64,000 nt of DNA from an uncultured Rikenellaceae bacterium (GTDB lineage Bacteria; Bacteroidota; Bacteroidia; Bacteroidales; VadinHA17): assembly GCA_964613785.1 (NCBI GenBank), contig CAZTJT010000001.1, forward strand, positions 49,869 through 113,868, written 5' to 3'. The translations under genes and the position numbers were made by a program. The notes beneath the pieces were generated by a model. The model saw only the letters and a program-made list of their open reading frames with translations. It was not told the origin of the DNA and did not search any database. Within the stretch, counting starts at the first letter, position 1. Every line of letters begins with the position of its first letter. This document shows, piece after piece, positions 53,100-62,769 of this stretch.

Positions 53100-56000
53100 T
53101 CAGACTTCAGGTTTCTCATTACCAAGGCTCCCGACAAAAGCAAATAGCTTCCTGAAAATATTCGTATAAAGAGTAATATACAAAACAAGAGACTCAAGCC
53201 ATATTACAACGATGTTAAAAATGAAGGTGTCAACTTTCAGGTTGAAAATATTTTTATAGGGTGCATAAAAATGAGCTCTTCCATTCTTCAAGACGGGGAC
53301 CATATATCCTGGATCAGCCTTTTGAACGATCTTATCCGGTAATCTGAAGCTTTTTTCAAGGTTGTCGGCATCCAGGATGATTCTCTTTAACTGCTTGTTT
53401 TCATATTGGTTACGTATCTCCAGCAGCTTTTCATTCCCGTACTTATCAAGAAGCTGGACACTGACTGCGTCCTTTGCCGATTTGGCTTCCTTTTGCTGTT
53501 CGGTAAAATACTTTTTCAGAGAAGCAAGATAAGCAACAGCTTGTTTTTCAACATTGCCGAACATTTCATAATTGACAGAATCCTTCCATCTGCCCGGATT
53601 GATCCCTGACATTTCAGCCAGATTATCAAAATGATATCTGAGTCTCTTAAGAGTATTCAGGACACTGGTTCTGTAATCGGTGCTGTCGTGGTAGAGGTTG
53701 AAAACGTAAATTTCTCTGTTCAGTTCATCGATCAGGAAGGATGAATAATAATTATTCTGACTTTCTGCCATATTATACCTGAAAAAATTTCTCTCGTAAT
53801 AATTGTCTCTGAACTGTTTTACAGCCAGAGCCTCAAACGACCAGCGGGCCGTCATTACATCCCCGATTAACGGGACATATTCATGCGCAGAATGACTGCT
53901 AAGATGCAGCTTGTCAAATTTGACAAGGACTCCGCTGAACAATAGCTGCGGAATAACTATAAACGGAATGATTATATAAACAGTAATTACTGAATTCAGG
54001 ACGGAGGAGATATTAAGACCAAGAATATTGCCAAAGCATGATGTTGTGAATAATACAAGCCAGTAACTCAGGGTCATTCCTTTTATTCCCAGGACTGCAT
54101 TCCCGATAATGACGAAGGAAGCGCTTTGTATTGCAGAAAGGATGAACATTATCAAAATTTTGGAATTCAGATAGCTGAACCAGCTCAGGTGCAGGAATGC
54201 TTCTCTTTTAAGGATTTTCCTGTCTTTAATAATCTCTTCAGAGCTTAGCATTAATCCGAAAAACAGCGAGGTTATTACAGCCATGAACAGATATGCAGGG
54301 ATATTGTCATTTTCGCTGAAGCTATAAATGTCACCTTTTGAAGATCGGGTAAAATATGCGAGAAAAAATGCCAGCAATGGAGGTCCCAGCAGGCTAATCA
54401 GTAAATATTGTTTGTTTGAAAGCTTCGATAAGAGGTCGCGGGTGAAAAAGATCAAGGTTTGCTTAAATTTTCCAGGAGTATTGAAATTGCTTTTAGGGAT
54501 TTCTTGTTTTTTAAAGAAATCCCTTTTAATTGTGATTCCGGATTTAATGAATTTATCGGCCCATTCAGCTGGTGTCACTTTTCTTGTACGGGTAGTTTTT
54601 CCATGTTCGTCCACTACTTTTGCTTCAATTATCTGAAGGATCTGGTCGGTATTTATATTACCACATTTTGAACACTGGTCTTCCTTCGGATTTGAGTGGT
54701 TTGTCATAGCCTTAAAATAGGTTATGGCTTCTGACGGATTTCCGAAGAAAACCTGGTATCCTCCCTTGTCAATGATCATTATCTTGTCGAACATTTTATA
54801 GATTTCGGAGGAAGGCTGATGAATGTTAACTACAACAAGTTTTCCCTTGTGAGTCTGACCTTTTAGCAAATTCATTACCACCTCAGAATCAGCAGAAGAT
54901 AAACCAGAGGTAGGTTCGTCCACAAAAAGGATTGTAGGTTCCCGCAGAAGTTCAAGTGCGATATTGATCCTTTTTCGTTGTCCTCCGCTTATCACTTTTT
55001 TAAGTGGATTTCCAACCTTGAGATCTTTTACTTCCTGAAGGTCAAAATCAGCAAGTATTTTATTTGCAGCATCATTTAATTCAGCCTCCGTCAGATTGCT
55101 CAGGCAAAGCTTTGCATTATAGTAAATGTTCTGAAAAACTGTCAGATCTTCAATTAACAGGTCATCCTGGGGAACATAGCCAATTACTCCCTTCAGTGTG
55201 TCTGTGTTCTTCTCATCGTAAATATTGTAACCGTTTATCAGGACTTCTCCACTTTGTGGTTTTAAAGTTCCATTAAGTATACTGAGAGTTGTTGATTTTC
55301 CAACACCACTTCCGCCTATAATACCTATGAGATTTCCTTCTTCTCCATGAAAATTAAGATTCTGAATGCCATTGCTGCTGTTCATGAACCTGAATGATAC
55401 GTTAATTGCATCGAGCGAGATTCTGAAATTTCTCGATGTTTCAGCTATCAATCCACTGATTTCGCTGTAATAAACGGTTTTGATCCCGGCCCCCCTTATC
55501 GTTGAACCCTGATCGAAAATATATGTCTGATCCGGAAAAATGATCTGCCCGTTTAGGTATAGGTCCTCATCCCCATCATACCTCATAATATATGTCAGAG
55601 TAACTGATATTTGCAAAAACGCGATATTCCCTCTTATGTTTGAATCGAAGATGTGTTTTATTGCATGTTGTAAAGGTTCCTTATGGTTGTTTATTATCAA
55701 TATTTTGCTTTTATCTCTGACATTATTTATGTCATATAAAATGAATTCCCTGATATTCATGTATTCATTTTGAGGAATATTAAATGCACTTGCAACGGTA
55801 TCAACAAAATCAAGTTCGGTCTCAGTAATCTCTTCCCCAAATGAAATGAAATCCAACAACTGGACAATTACATAGATTTTTTGCTTTAGGTGCAGTTCAG
55901 TGTTAATCTTTTCACAGATCGCCAGGATTTTTAGTGAATTCAGTGCAACGTGCTTTCTTTCTCTAATGGTTCCTCTTTCTATGTTACCTGAATTGTATTG

Positions 56001-56174
56001 CAAAAGATATACCTCATACGACTCCATGTATCTGTCAACCATTTCCTTGTTGAGATGGCGTTCCAGAAAGAGCTTCACAAGGTCTTTTTTACGGCTTATT
56101 ATACCGATTTCCTCATGAATATCGCTTATTAGTGCAAAAAGACGCACCAATGCATCAATAACTGTTTCACTCAT
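53100..56174 (-). CDS. ABCG-like fused ATPase/permease with long N-terminal extension
   Basis: Walker A GGSGVGKST, signature SGGQRKR, Walker B LFVDEPTSGLS and IHQPSS. An ABC-2-type membrane domain follows. The ~260-aa N-terminal region is TerB-like and a C-terminal extension is present. Confidence 0.8.
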   Translation of the reverse strand: MSETVIDALVRLFALISDIHEEIGIISRKKDLVKLFLERHLNKEMVDRYMESYEVYLLQYNSGNIERGTIRERKHVALNSLKILAICEKINTELHLKQKIYVIVQLLDFISFGEEITETELDFVDTVASAFNIPQNEYMNIREFILYDINNVRDKSKILIINNHKEPLQHAIKHIFDSNIRGNIAFLQISVTLTYIMRYDGDEDLYLNGQIIFPDQTYIFDQGSTIRGAGIKTVYYSEISGLIAETSRNFRISLDAINVSFRFMNSSNGIQNLNFHGEEGNLIGIIGGSGVGKSTTLSILNGTLKPQSGEVLINGYNIYDEKNTDTLKGVIGYVPQDDLLIEDLTVFQNIYYNAKLCLSNLTEAELNDAANKILADFDLQEVKDLKVGNPLKKVISGGQRKRINIALELLREPTILFVDEPTSGLSSADSEVVMNLLKGQTHKGKLVVVNIHQPSSEIYKMFDKIMIIDKGGYQVFFGNPSEAITYFKAMTNHSNPKEDQCSKCGNINTDQILQIIEAKVVDEHGKTTRTRKVTPAEWADKFIKSGITIKRDFFKKQEIPKSNFNTPGKFKQTLIFFTRDLLSKLSNKQYLLISLLGPPLLAFFLAYFTRSSKGDIYSFSENDNIPAYLFMAVITSLFFGLMLSSEEIIKDRKILKREAFLHLSWFSYLNSKILIMFILSAIQSASFVIIGNAVLGIKGMTLSYWLVLFTTSCFGNILGLNISSVLNSVITVYIIIPFIVIPQLLFSGVLVKFDKLHLSSHSAHEYVPLIGDVMTARWSFEALAVKQFRDNYYERNFFRYNMAESQNNYYSSFLIDELNREIYVFNLYHDSTDYRTSVLNTLKRLRYHFDNLAEMSGINPGRWKDSVNYEMFGNVEKQAVAYLASLKKYFTEQQKEAKSAKDAVSVQLLDKYGNEKLLEIRNQYENKQLKRIILDADNLEKSFRLPDKIVQKADPGYMVPVLKNGRAHFYAPYKNIFNLKVDTFIFNIVVIWLESLVLYITLYTNIFRKLFAFVGSLGNEKPEV

Positions 56175-56243
56175 AGTTTAAAAACCAATCAACGGGTCAG
56201 GAATAAAATGCTCTTTGTTAGTCAGAAAAAAGTTTATAAAGAT

Positions 56244-56251
56244 TATATTTG
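56244..56251 (+). promoter_or_regulatory. candidate -7 box (TATATTTG) for the Sia-like operon
   Basis: TAnnTTTG match 122 nt upstream of the ATG at 56374. Confidence 0.25.
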
Positions 56252-56373
56252 TCTAAAACATTTGAAGTTAATATTTTATCATTAATAATAGAAATTTTTG
56301 TTTTATTTCAGCTGATCATTTTCATAATAAGATATTTTGAAAAGGTTTAATTATAAGTGTCATTAGAAGGTAT

Positions 56374-57294
56374 ATGAGTGAGTCGGCTACGATTATTGAA
56401 CATTACGGTTTTGTCGACCATAATAAAATTAACATTCTTTTACAGCAGTTAAAGGAGGACAGTAATTTTAGAAGTCTTCACCGCACTACAGGTAAAAGAT
56501 TATATTCCATAATAGTGGAGTGCCTCGAAAATATCGAGAGGTATTCAGTCAGGGCATTACCTGGGGATAATATTCCTGAACCCTATATCTCTGTCGTTGT
56601 GGAGGATCAAAGGATTTTAATATCCAGTGGTAATCCTGTGGAGCATAAAAAGACGTGCATGCTCTCGATGTTAGTTAACAGGGTCAATTCTATGAGTGAT
56701 GATGATCTGCTTGCCCTTTATGAGAAGAACATAAACAGAGAACCTCTTCCTGAGGAAAATGGGGCCGGTCTGGGTTTCATAATAATGAAGCTGAAATCTG
56801 GCAGCAGGATTGTTTTCAGCATTAATGAAATCAGGGGAGGTCTATCGTATTTTAAGATGCAAATATCATTAAACAAGTATATTATGAGAAAGTTAGTTAT
56901 CGAAAAGACTTCATTCTCTCCGGGAGTGACACTTGATCCCGAAAAAGGCCTTTTTGTTATATCGGGTGAATCCCGCCCGCCTGATGTAGCTAATTTCTAT
57001 GGAGAAATTCTGAAATGGTTTGATGATTTTTCACATTCTTCTTATGGGATGAAAGAAGCCGGTAAATCATTTGCAATGAACTTTGATTTTGAATATTTCA
57101 ATTCATCTTCAGCAAAATACCTTTTGGATTTGTGCAAACAGATTTCTGCGGCAAGATCAGGAGGAATGAATATCGCAGTAAACTGGCACTATGAGGAAAA
57201 TGACCTTGACATGCTTGAGGCAGGAAGAGAAATGTCGAGAATCGCCAAAGTCCCTTTTGAATTCATTCTCAGAGCCAACGAATCAGATATCTGA
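56374..57294 (+). CDS. fusion of a SiaB-like kinase domain and a SiaC-like (DUF1987) phosphoprotein domain
   Basis: Residues 1-170 follow the ...IVECLENIERYS...ENGAGLGFIIMKLKSG... pattern of SiaB-family HATPase-like kinases. Residues 171-306 (internal ATG at 56884) follow the DUF1987 pattern TLDPEKGLFVISGESRP...FYGEILKWF...FEYFNSSSAKYL...VNWHYEENDLDMLEAG. Confidence 0.65.
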   Translation: MSESATIIEHYGFVDHNKINILLQQLKEDSNFRSLHRTTGKRLYSIIVECLENIERYSVRALPGDNIPEPYISVVVEDQRILISSGNPVEHKKTCMLSMLVNRVNSMSDDDLLALYEKNINREPLPEENGAGLGFIIMKLKSGSRIVFSINEIRGGLSYFKMQISLNKYIMRKLVIEKTSFSPGVTLDPEKGLFVISGESRPPDVANFYGEILKWFDDFSHSSYGMKEAGKSFAMNFDFEYFNSSSAKYLLDLCKQISAARSGGMNIAVNWHYEENDLDMLEAGREMSRIAKVPFEFILRANESDI

Positions 57295-57303
57295 TAAAGA
57301 AAT

Positions 57304-59265
57304 ATGTGGACGGATATAATTCTTGATCCTCAGGAAGTGCCGAGTTCAACTTTTGCTGATAATACAGGAGAAGATGGTGATGGGTTTGTCAGCAGGATTG
57401 CTGCTTTTATATATTCCGATATCAAGAGGGCGGGGCATTTATTTTCTTTTCCCATTGATTTAAGCAGTGAATTCAATGATCTCAGTAATGAAGAAAAAAG
57501 TTTTTGGCTTGACTTTGTGACCGGAATACCTTCTAAGCTCAAAGCTTTCAGGCTTTTCATTCGTCCTTACGGCAGATTTTGCAGAACCTGCCTTATCCCT
57601 GACTGTGACATTGAGAAAATGGCTAAGATCGACTACGACCAGCTCAGATGCAGGTCTAAGGCAATTGCATTACTGACTGAAGCGGATCCGGATCTTTTTA
57701 TAAAACCATACCAGAGACTTCCTGCTCAAAGAAAAGCTTTCTTTATCGAAATGAATTACCTTATACCGGTTGCACTTAAAAAGGTTGGTTATGAAATAAT
57801 AAGACCCGAAGAGGCATCTGAAATCAGTGAGAAATTCACATACCGGCTTGCTAAAACAATCCATTCACGCTATCTTCATGAATTACGGAAAAAAAGTTTT
57901 ATAGAAACAGGCAATTCTTATATTTCTGATTTTTTTGCTTCCGGAGATGCCGGTTCCAGTGCTTTAAATGAATTTGATGATCTTTCTGATGATATAAAGT
58001 ATTCCAATATTGATAATGCATATCATATACCGACAAAACTTTTATCTATCGGATACAAAATAAAGCCTGTGACCTCGGGTCATACTACTCTGACCCTTCA
58101 CCTCAGTCATGACGAGATTGAAACGATGGCTATAGTTGAGCACCTGAGATGGTGCTGGGATAAAAGGCTTAATGGATGGGTGCCCGGAAAGGTAAAAAAC
58201 AATGAGAAGAAGACTCATCCGGGGCTTGTGCCTTATGAAAGACTTCCTGACTCCGAAAAAGAGAAAGACAGGGAACTTGTCCGACTGATTCCCGCTTTGC
58301 TTAAAGACATAGGCTATGAAGTATTTCCGGCAAACCCTAATCTGATACGTAAGCTTTCATATGCAATCAAACCTCACAGCAGTATTCATAAGATACTTAT
58401 CGAAACCAGAGACTTGAATGACAAGATTCGAAGAATGGTAAACCTTTCGCCTGAAGTTGAGGAAATGGTGCAGGTGAGAAATAAGAAAATAGAGGATGCG
58501 ATCAGGGAGGTTGAAGGGAATTATAACTACGCCCAGCACATCCAGAAGACATACCTGCCTGATGATCTTTATATAAGAGAATGCTTTCAGGAGAGTTTCA
58601 TCCTTTATAAGCCAAAGGATATCGTAAGCGGCGACTTTTATTTTTTCAGCAAGTCAGAAGATAAGATAATTTTTGCCGCGGCTGATTGTACCGGTCATGG
58701 TATTCCCGGGGCCCTTTTGAGCACCCTGGGTTATGGTATTATTGATCAGGCAGTAAATGAGATCAGACTTACAGATCCACATCAGATACTTAACCATCTT
58801 TACTCCAAGATTCACCGGTTCCTTAGAGACGACGAAGAGGGAACCAGCGTTTCAGATGATATGGATATTTCTCTCTGTATACTTGACATTGGTTCAAATA
58901 TTCTCACCTATGCAGGTGTTGTTAATCCTCTTTACCGAATCACAAAAGGGGAACTGATTGAGTACAAGGCTCAAAATTCAAAAGACATCTGTATTGGTTC
59001 AAATAATTACCACTTCATTTCAGATAACATAAAACTAAATATAGGCGATACATTATATATCTTCTCCGACGGATACTGTGATCAGTTCGGAGGAAGGCAC
59101 CATAAGAAGTACCAGAGCAGCAGATTTAAAAGCTTCCTTTTATCAATTCAGGAATTCACTCTGCCTGAACAAGGTGACAGGCTTAACGAGGAAATAGAGA
59201 AATGGAGAGATGAATACAATGAAGATCAGACGGATGACATAATGGTTATAGGGATTAAAATCTGA
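57304..59265 (+). CDS. PP2C/SpoIIE phosphatase with four N-terminal RyR-like repeats (SiaA-like role)
   Basis: The C-terminal ~240 aa carry SGDFYFF...AADCTGHGIPGA...DDMDISLC...FSDGY...DDIMVIGIKI. The N-terminal region has four units, each ending in IPxxLxxxG[Y/F]xIxP. The fourth matches the RyR domain (HLRWCWDKRLNGW...HPGLVPYERLPDSEKEKDRELV). Confidence 0.7.
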   Translation: MWTDIILDPQEVPSSTFADNTGEDGDGFVSRIAAFIYSDIKRAGHLFSFPIDLSSEFNDLSNEEKSFWLDFVTGIPSKLKAFRLFIRPYGRFCRTCLIPDCDIEKMAKIDYDQLRCRSKAIALLTEADPDLFIKPYQRLPAQRKAFFIEMNYLIPVALKKVGYEIIRPEEASEISEKFTYRLAKTIHSRYLHELRKKSFIETGNSYISDFFASGDAGSSALNEFDDLSDDIKYSNIDNAYHIPTKLLSIGYKIKPVTSGHTTLTLHLSHDEIETMAIVEHLRWCWDKRLNGWVPGKVKNNEKKTHPGLVPYERLPDSEKEKDRELVRLIPALLKDIGYEVFPANPNLIRKLSYAIKPHSSIHKILIETRDLNDKIRRMVNLSPEVEEMVQVRNKKIEDAIREVEGNYNYAQHIQKTYLPDDLYIRECFQESFILYKPKDIVSGDFYFFSKSEDKIIFAAADCTGHGIPGALLSTLGYGIIDQAVNEIRLTDPHQILNHLYSKIHRFLRDDEEGTSVSDDMDISLCILDIGSNILTYAGVVNPLYRITKGELIEYKAQNSKDICIGSNNYHFISDNIKLNIGDTLYIFSDGYCDQFGGRHHKKYQSSRFKSFLLSIQEFTLPEQGDRLNEEIEKWRDEYNEDQTDDIMVIGIKI

Positions 59266-59332
59266 GATTTTCTTTGATGAATTAAATTTTGATGAAAAGT
59301 TATTTGTTTATTTTTGCCGTTTGCTTTATAAC

Positions 59333-60076
59333 ATGCCCGCAATTTTCAGAAAAGAGATAAGTGGTTTTTTCAGCAGTCTGACTGGCCATATAGTTATAAT
59401 TGTATTCCTGCTTATCAACTCGTTGTTTATGTGGGTTTTCCCTGGTGAGCTTAATATCCTCGACAATGGGTATGCAGGATTGGATACGCTGTTCCTTATC
59501 TCTCCATGGGTGTTCCTTTTCCTTGTACCTGCGGTGACCATGAAAATGTTCGCCGAAGAAAAAAGACTGGGTACTATTGAATTGATATATTCAAGGCCGG
59601 TAACTGAAAGAGGTATTGTTTATGGTAAATATATGGCATCAGTTGCCCTTGTGCTTCTAGCCTTGCTGCCATGCATCGTTTTCTATGTCTCAGTTTACCG
59701 GCTTGGAGAACCCCCCGGAAATCTCGATAAGGGGGCAATCATCGGAGCCTCTGTAGGACTCTTTTTCCTTGCTGCAGTTTATGCATCTGCAGGGATTTTT
59801 GCCTCCTCACTTACAGATAACCAGGTTATTGCATTTATAATGGCTATCGTAATCTCCTTTTTTATGTTCATGGGATTTGATTCATTTGCTTATCTTCCGG
59901 GACTGAAAAAGATTGACGAATTTGTTATTAAACTCGGGATAAATGAACATTATAAATCTATGAGCCGTGGTGTAATCGATGTAAGCGATATAATGTATTT
60001 CATTGCAGTTGTTTTAATTTTCAATGAAGCAACAAGGCTGGTCCTTATATCAAGAAAATGGAGAGAGAAAAGCTGA
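59333..60076 (+). CDS. gldF: gliding-motility ABC transporter permease GldF
   Basis: MPAIFRKEISGFFSSLTGH start, then PWVFLFLVPAVTMKMFAEEKRLGTIEL. I prefer ATG 59333 over the TTG at 59321. Confidence 0.8.
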   Translation: MPAIFRKEISGFFSSLTGHIVIIVFLLINSLFMWVFPGELNILDNGYAGLDTLFLISPWVFLFLVPAVTMKMFAEEKRLGTIELIYSRPVTERGIVYGKYMASVALVLLALLPCIVFYVSVYRLGEPPGNLDKGAIIGASVGLFFLAAVYASAGIFASSLTDNQVIAFIMAIVISFFMFMGFDSFAYLPGLKKIDEFVIKLGINEHYKSMSRGVIDVSDIMYFIAVVLIFNEATRLVLISRKWREKS

Positions 60077-61798
60077 ATGATGGGGAAGAATTACAATATA
60101 CAGGTTATCAGGAAGAAGAGTCTGATTGAGTTTTTCACTGTGGTAGCTGTAATCATTCTCACAGCAGTTTTGCTTTCAAATCTGAGAATACGCCTTGATC
60201 TGACAGAGGACAAACGGTATACCCTTTCTGATGCAACCAGGAAAATACTTTCGGAATTAAAAAATGATGTTTTCATTCAGGTCTATCTTGATGGAGAGAT
60301 GCCTATCCCGTTTAAGCGGCTTAAACGATCAGTAAGGTACATGCTTGATGAGTTCAGAATAGCATCGGGCAACAAGGTGGATTTTGTTTTTCAGAATCCT
60401 TCTGAGGGAGAAGATCAGGAAAAAAGAGAATCCATGTACCAGTCGCTTGTTGGAAAAGGGCTCAACCCGGTTAATATCCAGGCGGGCGACCAGGAAGGTG
60501 GATCGAGTTCGAGGATTATTTTTCCCGGAATGATCTTCAACTTCAACGGAATAGAAGTCCCGGTTAACTTCCTGAAAAACAATCCTACTGTGTCAGCCGA
60601 GGAAAACCTCCTCCATTCGATGGAGGGTCTTGAATATGAAATGATCCAGACCATATCAACGTTGACTTCCGATTCAATCAGAAAAATCGCTTTCCTTGAG
60701 GGCCATGGCGAGTTCTCAGAAGCAGAAGTTGCTGATATTACGCTCCATCTGGCCAGATTTTTTACCATCGACAGGGGAAAACTTGGTGGTGATCCCGGTG
60801 TTCTTGACAACTATGCTGCTGTTATTGTTGCAGGACCTGTTAAGGAATTCACAGAAAGCGACAAATTCATTCTCGATCAATATATAATGAAAGGTGGAAA
60901 AATATTATGGCTTGTTGAGGAAGTGGATGTTAATGCTGACAGCCTGGTAAACGGAGAGACCGAAGCCCTTATTCGGCCTCTAAATCTGGAGGATCAGCTT
61001 TTCAGATACGGTACCAGGATAAATCCAGCAGTTATACAGGATGCGGAATGTGTTATGATAAAGCTTGCGGTAATGACAGGCGGTACCCGGCAGCAATTCA
61101 TCCCTGCACCCTGGTTCTATTATCCCAAATTATACCCTTCAAACAGTCATCCTGTTACAAGAAATATTAACAGGGTCAAAGGAGAATATGTCAATTTTAT
61201 TGATACTGTTGGCCTTGACAGCAGGATTAGAAAAACAATCCTGCTTTCCACATCACGTTTTTCCAGGACTTTGTCGCCTCCTTTTATGATCAGTCTGAAG
61301 GATGCCGAGACAATTCCAAATGAAAGGGAATTCAACAGATCAAATCTGCCGGTTGCCGTACTTCTCGAAGGGGTTTTCATTTCTGCATTCAGAAACAGGC
61401 TTACTGCCGAACTTACGAATGACAAAAGTTATAAGGCCAGAATTGAAAGCATTCCCACAAAAATGATTGTCGTTGCCGATGGAAACATCATACGTAATGA
61501 GGTAAGGCAGATAGGCAATAATATTACCCCTTATCCGCTTGGGCAGGATATTTATACCGGCGAATTATTCGGCAACAGGGATTTTATCATTAACTGCATG
61601 AACTATCTTGTTGATGATAATGGCATTATGGAGCTCCGATCGCGTGAACTCAGACTTAGGATGCTTAACCTTTCAAAAATCAAAAAAGAGAGGATCAAAT
61701 GGCAGCTTGTTAACCTCACTTTTCCTGTGGTTCTGGTCATAATTACAGGAATTATTTTCAGTTATTTCAGAAAAAAAAGGTTCACAAAAGCAAGATAA
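60077..61798 (+). CDS. gldG: gliding-motility ABC transporter auxiliary component GldG
   Basis: N- and C-terminal TM anchors and the DLTEDKRYTLSDATRKIL motif. It starts immediately after gldF. Confidence 0.8.
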   Translation: MMGKNYNIQVIRKKSLIEFFTVVAVIILTAVLLSNLRIRLDLTEDKRYTLSDATRKILSELKNDVFIQVYLDGEMPIPFKRLKRSVRYMLDEFRIASGNKVDFVFQNPSEGEDQEKRESMYQSLVGKGLNPVNIQAGDQEGGSSSRIIFPGMIFNFNGIEVPVNFLKNNPTVSAEENLLHSMEGLEYEMIQTISTLTSDSIRKIAFLEGHGEFSEAEVADITLHLARFFTIDRGKLGGDPGVLDNYAAVIVAGPVKEFTESDKFILDQYIMKGGKILWLVEEVDVNADSLVNGETEALIRPLNLEDQLFRYGTRINPAVIQDAECVMIKLAVMTGGTRQQFIPAPWFYYPKLYPSNSHPVTRNINRVKGEYVNFIDTVGLDSRIRKTILLSTSRFSRTLSPPFMISLKDAETIPNEREFNRSNLPVAVLLEGVFISAFRNRLTAELTNDKSYKARIESIPTKMIVVADGNIIRNEVRQIGNNITPYPLGQDIYTGELFGNRDFIINCMNYLVDDNGIMELRSRELRLRMLNLSKIKKERIKWQLVNLTFPVVLVIITGIIFSYFRKKRFTKAR

Positions 61799-62769
61799 TG
61801 ACAGGTAAATTTCAGAACTATTTTTTTCTGGTTGTTCTTATCCTGATGGGATCATTTCTTTTGTTATTGAGGAACCGGGATCCTTTCGGCGGAAACAACA
61901 GCGATTTTGCTTCAAAACCTCAAAAAGAGATAACCCGTATAGAATTGTCTGATAAAAACAGTAAACTTAAATTGATAAAAAATGAAGACACATGGATACT
62001 TAATGACGGGTCGGAAGTCAGAAAAAGCAGTATCGTATTTATCAATCAGATCTTGTCAGGAATGAAAATCAAATCCCCTGTTTCTCCAGAACTTTTCAGG
62101 ACTGAGATCACTGATAAAGGTATCGAACCTGTGAAGGTAAGGGTTTTCGAAAACCGTAGATTGCTGAGCTCCTTCTATGTATATAAGACACAATCAAACA
62201 TTTACGGCAATATCATGAAGATAAAGGAGAGGTCGAAACCGTTTATTGTTTATCTTCCTGGTTATGAAACAAATATAGGATCCGTATTCACAGTCAATGA
62301 ACTTTACTGGAAGCCTTTTACAATATTTAACCTTTTACCGTCGGAAATCGCTTATGTTGAATTCAAAAGTCTCACTGATCCAGGGTCTTCATTCTCTATC
62401 AGGAACACTGATACCGGATTTGTTCTTTCAGATCCCGACATAGAGTTATCAGGTTGGGATACAACAAGAGTAATCCGTTACCTCTCATACTTTGTTTATG
62501 TTCCGTTTGAAACGTGGGAATTTGAGATGGAAGCATCTGAAATAGAAAGACTTAAAGTGTCCGATCCATTGTGTGTTATCTCTGTAAAAGACAGAGTCGG
62601 GAAAGAGATACGGCTTATGTTGTGGGAGCGGATGCTTCCCGGTCAGGGTGAAAAGAAAAAAGACACCGACCGATTATGGGGAAAGACTGACTCAAGCTCC
62701 GGTATATTTGTAATCAGATATATGGATATTGACCCTTTGCTTAAAAAGAGATCATATTTCTTCCCTTGA
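61798..62769 (+). CDS. DUF4340-like protein downstream of gldG
   Basis: 323 aa with an N-terminal TM segment. Its start overlaps the gldG stop. Family call is by position and pattern only. Confidence 0.55.
   Translation: MTGKFQNYFFLVVLILMGSFLLLLRNRDPFGGNNSDFASKPQKEITRIELSDKNSKLKLIKNEDTWILNDGSEVRKSSIVFINQILSGMKIKSPVSPELFRTEITDKGIEPVKVRVFENRRLLSSFYVYKTQSNIYGNIMKIKERSKPFIVYLPGYETNIGSVFTVNELYWKPFTIFNLLPSEIAYVEFKSLTDPGSSFSIRNTDTGFVLSDPDIELSGWDTTRVIRYLSYFVYVPFETWEFEMEASEIERLKVSDPLCVISVKDRVGKEIRLMLWERMLPGQGEKKKDTDRLWGKTDSSSGIFVIRYMDIDPLLKKRSYFFP

Follow-up and report, generated by a model that had tools for sequence, protein, structure and literature searches.

A fused SiaB-SiaC partner-switch module is conserved beside an ABCG-like exporter in uncultured Bacteroidales

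The 64,000-nucleotide window analyzed here (contig CAZTJT010000001.1 of assembly GCA_964613785.1, positions 49,869 to 113,868 of the forward strand, from an uncultured Rikenellaceae bacterium) carries a signaling locus related to the SiaABCD system of Pseudomonas aeruginosa. A single forward open reading frame (ORF) of 306 residues (56374-57294) joins a SiaB-family kinase to a SiaC-like acceptor domain, a second forward ORF of 653 residues (57304-59265) encodes a PP2C phosphatase with RyR repeats, and a 1024-residue ABCG-like half-transporter is encoded divergently on the reverse strand (53100-56174). The fusion is real, its orthologs also occur as split genes, its catalytic and acceptor residues are conserved, and the three genes form a conserved synteny in which the sensor of the phosphatase is interchangeable. 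With somewhat better than even confidence, we propose that the three genes constitute a partner-switch signaling-and-output unit in which the SiaC-like domain acts on the exporter. The original prediction, made from the letters of the window, had named these three frames together with gldF and gldG, and all of them lie where it placed them.

The N-terminal half of the fusion (residues 2-164; 56377-56865, forward strand) is a GHKL-like kinase domain that matches the NCBIfam SiaB-family kinase model NF038262 at 89.4 bits (cutoff 85) and Pfam DUF6272 (PF19788) at 84 bits. The C-terminal half (residues 171-298; 56884-57267, forward strand) is a STAS-like SiaC/DUF1987 domain, with a Pfam SiaC match (PF09345) of 98.3 bits over residues 176-298 (cutoff 24.5). 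Comparison of the family profile with PDB sequences matched only SiaB (6kko_A, E 1.6e-14) and SiaC (6kko_C and 6k4f, E ~1e-10). The AlphaFold2 (AF2) model of the fusion has a predicted local distance difference test score (pLDDT) of 85.9 and a predicted template modeling score (pTM) of 0.75, and its best PDB matches in Foldseek are again P. aeruginosa SiaB (6kko_A, E 1.8e-8, template modeling (TM) score 0.75) and SiaC (TM score 0.83-0.87). The next-best folds for the kinase half are SpoIIAB, RsbW, and UsfX. Scores against the NCBIfam equivalog models are lower: the fusion reaches 33.8 against the SiaB model NF038264 (cutoff 225) and 59 against the SiaC model NF038265 (cutoff 150), and residues 361-652 of the PP2C protein reach 176 bits against the SiaA model NF038263 (cutoff 700). 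Because these values fall below the equivalog cutoffs, we treat the SiaA-, SiaB-, and SiaC-like proteins as family members and not as orthologs. At that level, the SiaB, SiaC, and PP2C assignments first made by eye are upheld by both profile and fold.

Conservation was assessed across 72 fused sequences averaging ~50% identity. Glu49 and Asn53 in the ECLEN motif of the kinase domain are invariant, and the residues of the G130-A-G-L-G134 motif are either invariant or conserved in 90% or more of the sequences; each of the two motifs has its aligned counterpart in P. aeruginosa SiaB. In the SiaC-like domain, profile alignment places FN-S244-SS on LN-T68-SS of the solved SiaC structure, so that Ser244 (codon 57103-57105, forward strand) is the predicted phospho-acceptor and the equivalent of SiaC Thr68. 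Ser244 and Ser246 are invariant in the 72 sequences, and Ser245 is at least 90% conserved. The original prediction had singled out the segment FEYFNSSSAKY for carrying a serine at the acceptor position. The segment is present as described, but the serine is no peculiarity, as it is the majority residue among relatives: across 113 SiaC-like domains, chosen as nearest cluster representatives and thus biased towards relatives of the query, the acceptor column holds 75 Ser and 34 Thr, and FNSSS is the commonest motif.

The two domains are joined by an uninterrupted frame. Independent sequencing runs have yielded at least 24 contigs with the identical 306-residue ORF, and a homolog search with the fusion returned 652 relatives, the top 120 of which are all ~300 residues long and contain both Pfam domains. 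Genomic context was examined in two samples: 80 fusion-anchored loci from GTDB species representatives, all of them uncultured Bacteroidales-type metagenome-assembled genomes (MAGs), and 80 metagenome loci anchored on the N-terminal region of the transporter. Individual loci are referred to by L numbers. Among 153 related loci, 111 encode a single fused ORF, 24 encode two ORFs, and 18 are interrupted by contig ends. Some 20 of the 24 two-ORF loci are split at residues 169-171, the position at which an internal ATG (56884-56886, forward strand) encodes Met171 of the fusion. In the 72 fused sequences Met171 is invariant, and its aligned counterpart in P. aeruginosa SiaC is Met1. In the split orthologs, the second gene starts at this conserved junction ATG (M-R/K-K-L), and its start overlaps the stop codon of the SiaB-like gene either as ATGA or by ~23 nt. 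Since the split genes begin at the junction ATG and this ATG corresponds to Met1 of SiaC, the fusion is best described as a frame change at a former overlapping stop and start, with codon 171 being what remains of the start codon of a formerly separate SiaC-like gene. Fused and split states persist in one genomic context.

These data bear on three points raised at the outset. The ATG at 56884 had been placed at the domain junction, and it is indeed codon 171 and aligned with the first residue of SiaC; whether orthologs elsewhere are split or fused had been posed as a question, and both forms occur; and a sequencing error hiding a stop codon at the junction had been named as a possible flaw, which the identical contigs and the 111 fused loci rule out. 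We consider it extremely improbable that the fusion arose through misassembly or sequencing error, or that it is a pseudogene in decay. Three relatives (L062, L065, and L067) do carry frameshifts, but these lie elsewhere than at the junction, and such a reading would have to account for at least 24 independent identical contigs, 111 intact fused loci, invariant catalytic and acceptor residues, and a confident two-domain model. The frameshifts in the SiaBC genes of L062, L065, and L067 fall at residues ~123-127, ~138-146, and ~206-255 and represent either assembly errors or decaying copies.

The stretch leading up to the junction ATG (56861-56886) is very AT-rich and encodes a conserved I-N-K-Y-I; split relatives also use this stretch to initiate translation of the SiaC-like gene. 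Judging from the sequence, the invariant Met171 and the AT-rich stretch upstream of it might allow internal initiation within the fused gene and so give rise to a free SiaC-like isoform. Elsewhere in the databases, DUF6272 (B) and SiaC (C) domains occur in further arrangements, including B-B-C (~500 residues), B-B (~370 residues), C-C (~260 residues), and B-C-C-C (654 residues); distant B-C fusions of ~300 residues also exist, at 25-32% identity. Examples of the other arrangements are found among proteins P0149-P0297 (e.g., P0154, P0156, P0177, P0152, and P0264). Unlike these multidomain proteins, the present family is defined by its link to a TerB-like ABC transporter. None of the other arrangements is described in the searchable literature, which likewise holds no account of a DUF6272-SiaC fusion or of a transporter link and mentions DUF1987 only in PMC8457831.

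The PP2C gene begins 9 nt past the stop codon of the fusion. Its product ends in a SpoIIE-type PP2C catalytic domain (residues 452-652; 58657-59259, forward strand; PF07228, 56.9 bits) whose best PDB match is the phosphatase domain of SiaA (6k4e, E 4.8e-34). The N-terminal region contains four RyR-like repeats (residues ~25-345; 57376-58338, forward strand). Pfam RyR (PF02026) scores 63 bits in this protein, with two stretches reported, and recognizes the last repeat (residues 258-340), the only canonical one; the other three are degenerate and are missed or weakly seen by Pfam. Sub-alignments of the repeats, labeled A to D, match one another in hhalign (B-D, E 1e-12; A-C, 7e-8; B-C, 1.4e-5; C-D, 7e-5), and the region matches the repeats of RyR1, RyR2, and RyR3 as well as the Bacteroides thetaiotaomicron RyR domain 3nrt. 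Eukaryotic RyR channels likewise carry four RyR repeats, arranged as two tandem pairs. Hydropathy analysis finds no transmembrane segment in the PP2C protein, in line with a soluble enzyme.

Across the related loci, the N-terminus of the PP2C protein is of the RyR type in 86 cases. The other input regions comprise a receiver domain (proteins of ~410 residues), TPR arrays (~680-780 residues), and a Reg_prop/Y_Y_Y β-propeller (~1050-1080 residues). Phosphatases with such swapped sensors are encoded, for example, at L009 4408-5646, L039 4671-6740, L077 10937-14149, and L053 6881-9214. PP2C distances are nearly uncorrelated with distances of the ABC transporter, consistent with replacement of the phosphatase. 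The idea of a cytoplasmic PP2C with a distinct sensor is borne out, and the RyR region is one of at least four interchangeable inputs.

The neighborhood of the module points to a candidate output. In the fusion-anchored sample, the N-terminal end of the ABC transporter gene divergently adjoins SiaB/SiaC in 68 of the 74 loci with room upstream, at a median gap of 175 bp. In the reverse direction, SiaB/SiaC adjoins the transporter in 64 of 69 transporter-anchored loci, which puts the adjacency at ~92% both ways. The distribution of the transporter was taken from these contig scans; a homolog search with the ABC N-terminus returned 28 proteins, mostly fragments, against at least 150 existing loci. 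ORF clustering over 161 loci recovers only three near-universal families, namely SiaBC (153 loci), ABC (151), and PP2C (123), the last lying downstream of SiaBC in most related loci. The next tier of families, present in 33-60 loci, includes a class II aminoacyl-tRNA synthetase, an aminotransferase, an FGGY kinase, a TPR protein, and a DUF4956 protein; we take this tier to reflect phylogenetic synteny of housekeeping genes. No recurrent sigma-factor or DNA-binding gene is found among the conserved neighbors in the 161 loci. Nor is there a diguanylate cyclase, as had been noted for the window: a six-frame scan of all 64 kb finds no GG[DE]EF motif or near-variant, and the ORFs of 160 related loci contain no GG[DE]EF.

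A phosphatase input that varies around an unchanging SiaB/SiaC core and ABC neighbor is what one would expect were the transporter the output. We regard the exporter as the likely target of the Sia-type switch and infer that the switch controls transport. The suggestion that the output partner is a neighboring transport or motility component is therefore retained in part: the context favors the ABC transporter, whereas the adjacency of gldF and gldG, also put forward as candidates, is specific to one lineage. A search for Rosetta-stone proteins in which SiaBC is fused to the N-terminal domain of the transporter established no such fusion. A 441-residue ORF in L023 was rejected as a candidate, its start having been over-called. 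L053 has a genuine SiaBC extension of ~155 residues that has no Pfam match and was not directly compared with the ABC N-terminus.

The transporter combines an ABC_tran domain (PF00005, 107.7 bits) with an ABC2_membrane domain (PF01061, 77.2 bits) and its residues 280-754 align with ABCG2 (E 4e-41). The ATPase motifs Walker A (GGSGVGKST), signature (SGGQ), Walker B (LFVDEPTSGL), and IHQPS are intact. The first ~250 residues of the window copy have no Pfam match. An AF2 model of this N-terminal region (pLDDT 84, pTM 0.83) consists of a helical bundle and a β-sandwich. The bundle (residues 1-146; 55737-56174, reverse strand) is a seven-helix domain that appears TerB-like: Pfam TerB (PF05099) matches 15 of 22 transporter orthologs (best E 5.4e-5), with the window copy below threshold, and the bundle also has a weak fold match to PG1108 (2h5n). 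The β-sandwich (residues 158-228; 55491-55703, reverse strand) is tentatively described as weakly FHA-like. Its Foldseek PDB matches are nearly all FHA domains, at weak values (best E 0.01, TM score to target 0.44-0.52). Pfam FHA matches none of the 22 transporter orthologs, and a PDB profile search bearing on the FHA assignment returned nothing relevant. The canonical FHA residues GR and SxxH are not conserved, while LNGQ at 207-210 is nearly invariant. Phospho-dependent docking in the manner of an FHA domain is unlikely, because canonical FHA domains bind phospho-Thr and the acceptor here is an invariant Ser. The N-terminus is a well-conserved, confidently folded cytoplasmic regulatory region, which counts in favor of the exporter as the target. 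At the other end of the protein, a C-terminal extension (residues ~758-1024; 53103-53903, reverse strand) terminates in an extra transmembrane helix (984-1002). This ~225-residue extension matches no Pfam domain and is the fastest-evolving part of the transporter.

These features can be assembled into a working scheme. The kinase domain (residues 2-164) would phosphorylate Ser244 of its own chain or of the partner chain in a dimer, and the soluble SiaA-like PP2C would remove the phosphate when a cue triggers its four-RyR sensor. The unphosphorylated SiaC-like domain would be the active form and may bind the cytoplasmic part of the ABCG-like exporter, switching transport on or off; the TerB-like/β-sandwich N-terminus would be the likeliest docking site. 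Fusion of the two domains would fix the ratio of kinase to substrate at 1:1 and could create a single-chain open/closed device. In this scheme, the kinase and phosphatase steps are drawn from homology and conserved residues, the contact with the exporter from synteny, and the active phosphorylation state from the parallel with the SiaC-SiaD pair (PMC7278518, PMC8457831). Modulation of adjacent proteins was suggested as a general role of DUF1987 proteins by the authors who solved the SiaC-SiaD structure (PMC8457831), and the present locus fits this suggestion and makes it concrete. A more specific version, in which a Sia switch of a Bacteroidales lineage, with no cyclase encoded at its locus, has been rewired to gate the exporter directly through its N-terminus with the fusion serving as a single-chain phospho-switch, is a tentative idea that we hold to be possible but doubtful. 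If true, such direct gating would be the first case of partner-switch control of a membrane transporter within the literature searched.

Several observations weigh against action of the SiaC-like domain on the exporter. A mirror-tree comparison of distance matrices across 59 loci, controlled for the nucleotide-binding and transmembrane domains of the transporter, finds that SiaC and the ABC N-terminus do not specifically co-vary (partial r -0.11 and 0.03). The single notable partial correlation, 0.48 between SiaB and the C-terminal extension, is not interpreted because both regions evolve fast. The FHA-like call on the β-sandwich is a weak one. The closest relatives of the transporter, at 80% identity, are those of L081 and L082 (metagenome contigs Ga0302243_1000012 and Ga0255347_1000001). 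Both loci keep lpxB-spoIID-ABC on one side and gldF-gldG-orf323 on the other, and ~290 bp replace the two module genes (L081 6712-7001); SiaBC and PP2C are therefore present or absent as one two-gene unit. The converse is seen at L078 (9182-13382) and L079 (9956-14083), where SiaB, SiaC (split), and a β-propeller PP2C are kept and the ABC gene is gone; the flanking genes match those of L077. Co-location of SiaBC with the transporter is accordingly not obligatory. The remaining loci that lack the ABC gene (L022, L053, L054, and L070) share no common neighbor, their neighbors including aconitase, an AAA ATPase, an AraC-type helix-turn-helix protein, a glycosidase, and a TPR protein.

Three other arrangements of the same parts were weighed against an exporter that receives the output of the switch. 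The transporter might instead be the input, its N-terminal domain sensing activity or substrate load and setting the kinase, with the SiaC-like domain acting on an unlinked target. Flux-sensing Bce-type pairs of ABC transporter and kinase provide a model for such an arrangement, the tight divergent synteny is equally compatible with it, sensing is a role commonly discussed for TerB-like domains, and L078 and L079 retain the module with no transporter beside it. The variable sensor regions of the PP2C protein, however, already offer an obvious entry point for a signal, the 161 loci contain no other conserved gene that could serve as the output, and in the characterized Sia system it is the phosphatase that receives the signal (PMC7278518). 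We judge an input role of the transporter to be unlikely. A similarly low probability attaches to the module and the transporter being merely co-expressed or part of the same pathway, without contact, while the SiaC-like domain controls an unlinked protein; such a protein could be an enzyme that produces the compound to be exported, a sigma/anti-sigma pair, or some other regulator. Unlinked regulons are a frequent target of classical partner switches, and both the absence of a co-evolution signal between SiaC and the ABC N-terminus and the natural variants that locally lack one partner (L081/L082 and L078/L079) agree with a lack of contact. Yet the two-way adjacency of ~92%, maintained in orthologs down to ~45-50% identity, exceeds what loose co-function would lead one to expect, and the remaining neighbors are unrelated housekeeping genes.

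The gliding-motility ABC system downstream, GldF/GldG (with GldA), could in principle be the target. Both gldF (59321-60076, forward strand) and gldG (60077-61798, forward strand) encode proteins scoring above their NCBIfam equivalog cutoffs, and gldF follows the PP2C stop codon by 55 nt, on the strand of the PP2C gene, in the window as well as in L001-L003. This placement is confined to these closest relatives, the two genes adjoining the module in 3 of the 80 SiaBC-anchored loci. As L081 and L082 keep ABC-gldF-gldG in the absence of the module, the adjacency reflects lineage-specific gene order, and control of the gliding system by the switch is very unlikely.

Comparison with characterized systems places the locus among the partner switches. 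As in SiaABCD of P. aeruginosa, which supplies the best PDB matches for all three signaling folds (6kko_A, 6kko_C/6k4f, and 6k4e), the genes are clustered, the N-box and G-box of the kinase are conserved, and the acceptor occupies a common position (Thr68 in SiaC, Ser244 here). The two differ in that kinase and substrate are separate proteins in SiaABCD, whereas they form one polypeptide here and in most relatives; that a GGDEF cyclase, SiaD, is clustered with the former, while an ABCG-like transporter is the conserved neighbor of the latter; and that SiaA is a predicted membrane protein (PMC7278518), whereas the phosphatase here is soluble and carries RyR repeats. The classical RsbU/RsbV/RsbW and SpoIIE/SpoIIAA/SpoIIAB switches share with this locus a PP2C phosphatase, a GHKL-type Ser kinase, and a STAS-like acceptor with an acceptor Ser, and their phosphatase input modules vary as well. 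SiaC itself is STAS-like (PMC8457831 and PMC7647112). In contrast to these classical switches, the acceptor here is a DUF1987 domain and not a canonical STAS domain, and at the level of the locus, no sigma factor occurs in the conserved neighborhood of the 161 loci. Covalent linkage in the fusion keeps the antagonist from diffusing away from the kinase.

Rv1747/PknF of Mycobacterium tuberculosis offers a parallel on the transporter side, being likewise an ABC exporter that carries a cytoplasmic regulatory region at its N-terminus and is encoded beside a gene for Ser/Thr phospho-signaling. Rv1747 contains two FHA domains, and its activity is regulated by the operon-encoded Ser/Thr kinase PknF (PMC3138270); phosphorylation falls on Thr residues within an unstructured part of the transporter itself (PMC8339232). 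At the present locus, by contrast, the kinase is of the SiaB/GHKL type, the acceptor resides on a separate SiaC-like domain, and the weakly FHA-like β-sandwich lacks the canonical residues that bind phospho-Thr.

The intergenic region between the transporter and fusion genes (56175-56373) is 199 bp long, has a GC content of 22%, and is flanked by divergent genes. It contains a single copy of the Bacteroidota-type -7 motif TATATTTG, at 56244 on the forward strand and 122 nt upstream of the fusion ATG; the motif occurs at 0.73 per kb in the window, which makes it weak evidence for a promoter. A scan for sigma-70 promoter-like sites gave 34 against a shuffle mean of 20.3 (standard deviation 4.3), an excess that we leave uninterpreted because Bacteroidota promoters lie outside the sigma-70 consensus. 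Terminator-like sites, scanned alongside, show no excess over chance, and Rfam and tRNA scans of the window returned no match. Downstream of gldG, a 323-residue ORF (61798-62769) that shares one base with the gldG stop and matches neither Pfam nor NCBIfam is kept in the same position in L002, L003, and L081/L082 (59-64% identity); it probably encodes an uncharacterized partner of GldF and GldG. One contig labeled as a Chloroflexota MAG (L049, JBLNAO010000339.1) carries the complete ABC-SiaBC-RyR-PP2C module at an identity like that of the Bacteroidales loci, which probably reflects a binning error rather than transfer.

SiaC/DUF1987 proteins are widespread, and to our knowledge the SiaD cyclase is the only output of such a protein ever characterized. 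The ABC exporter described here is a well-defined candidate for a second SiaC output, with comparative support from ~150 loci and no cyclase encoded there. The occurrence of fused and split versions in one context provides natural material on the effects of kinase-substrate fusion in partner switches, and the exchangeable phosphatase sensors around a constant core provide the same for sensor swapping. If the link to the transporter is direct, partner-switch gating of an ABCG-type exporter at the post-translational level would join the known modes of transporter regulation, and bacterial RyR repeats would gain a concrete signaling context. The locus offers a clean and testable instance, in uncultured organisms, of a Sia-type switch with a non-cyclase partner.

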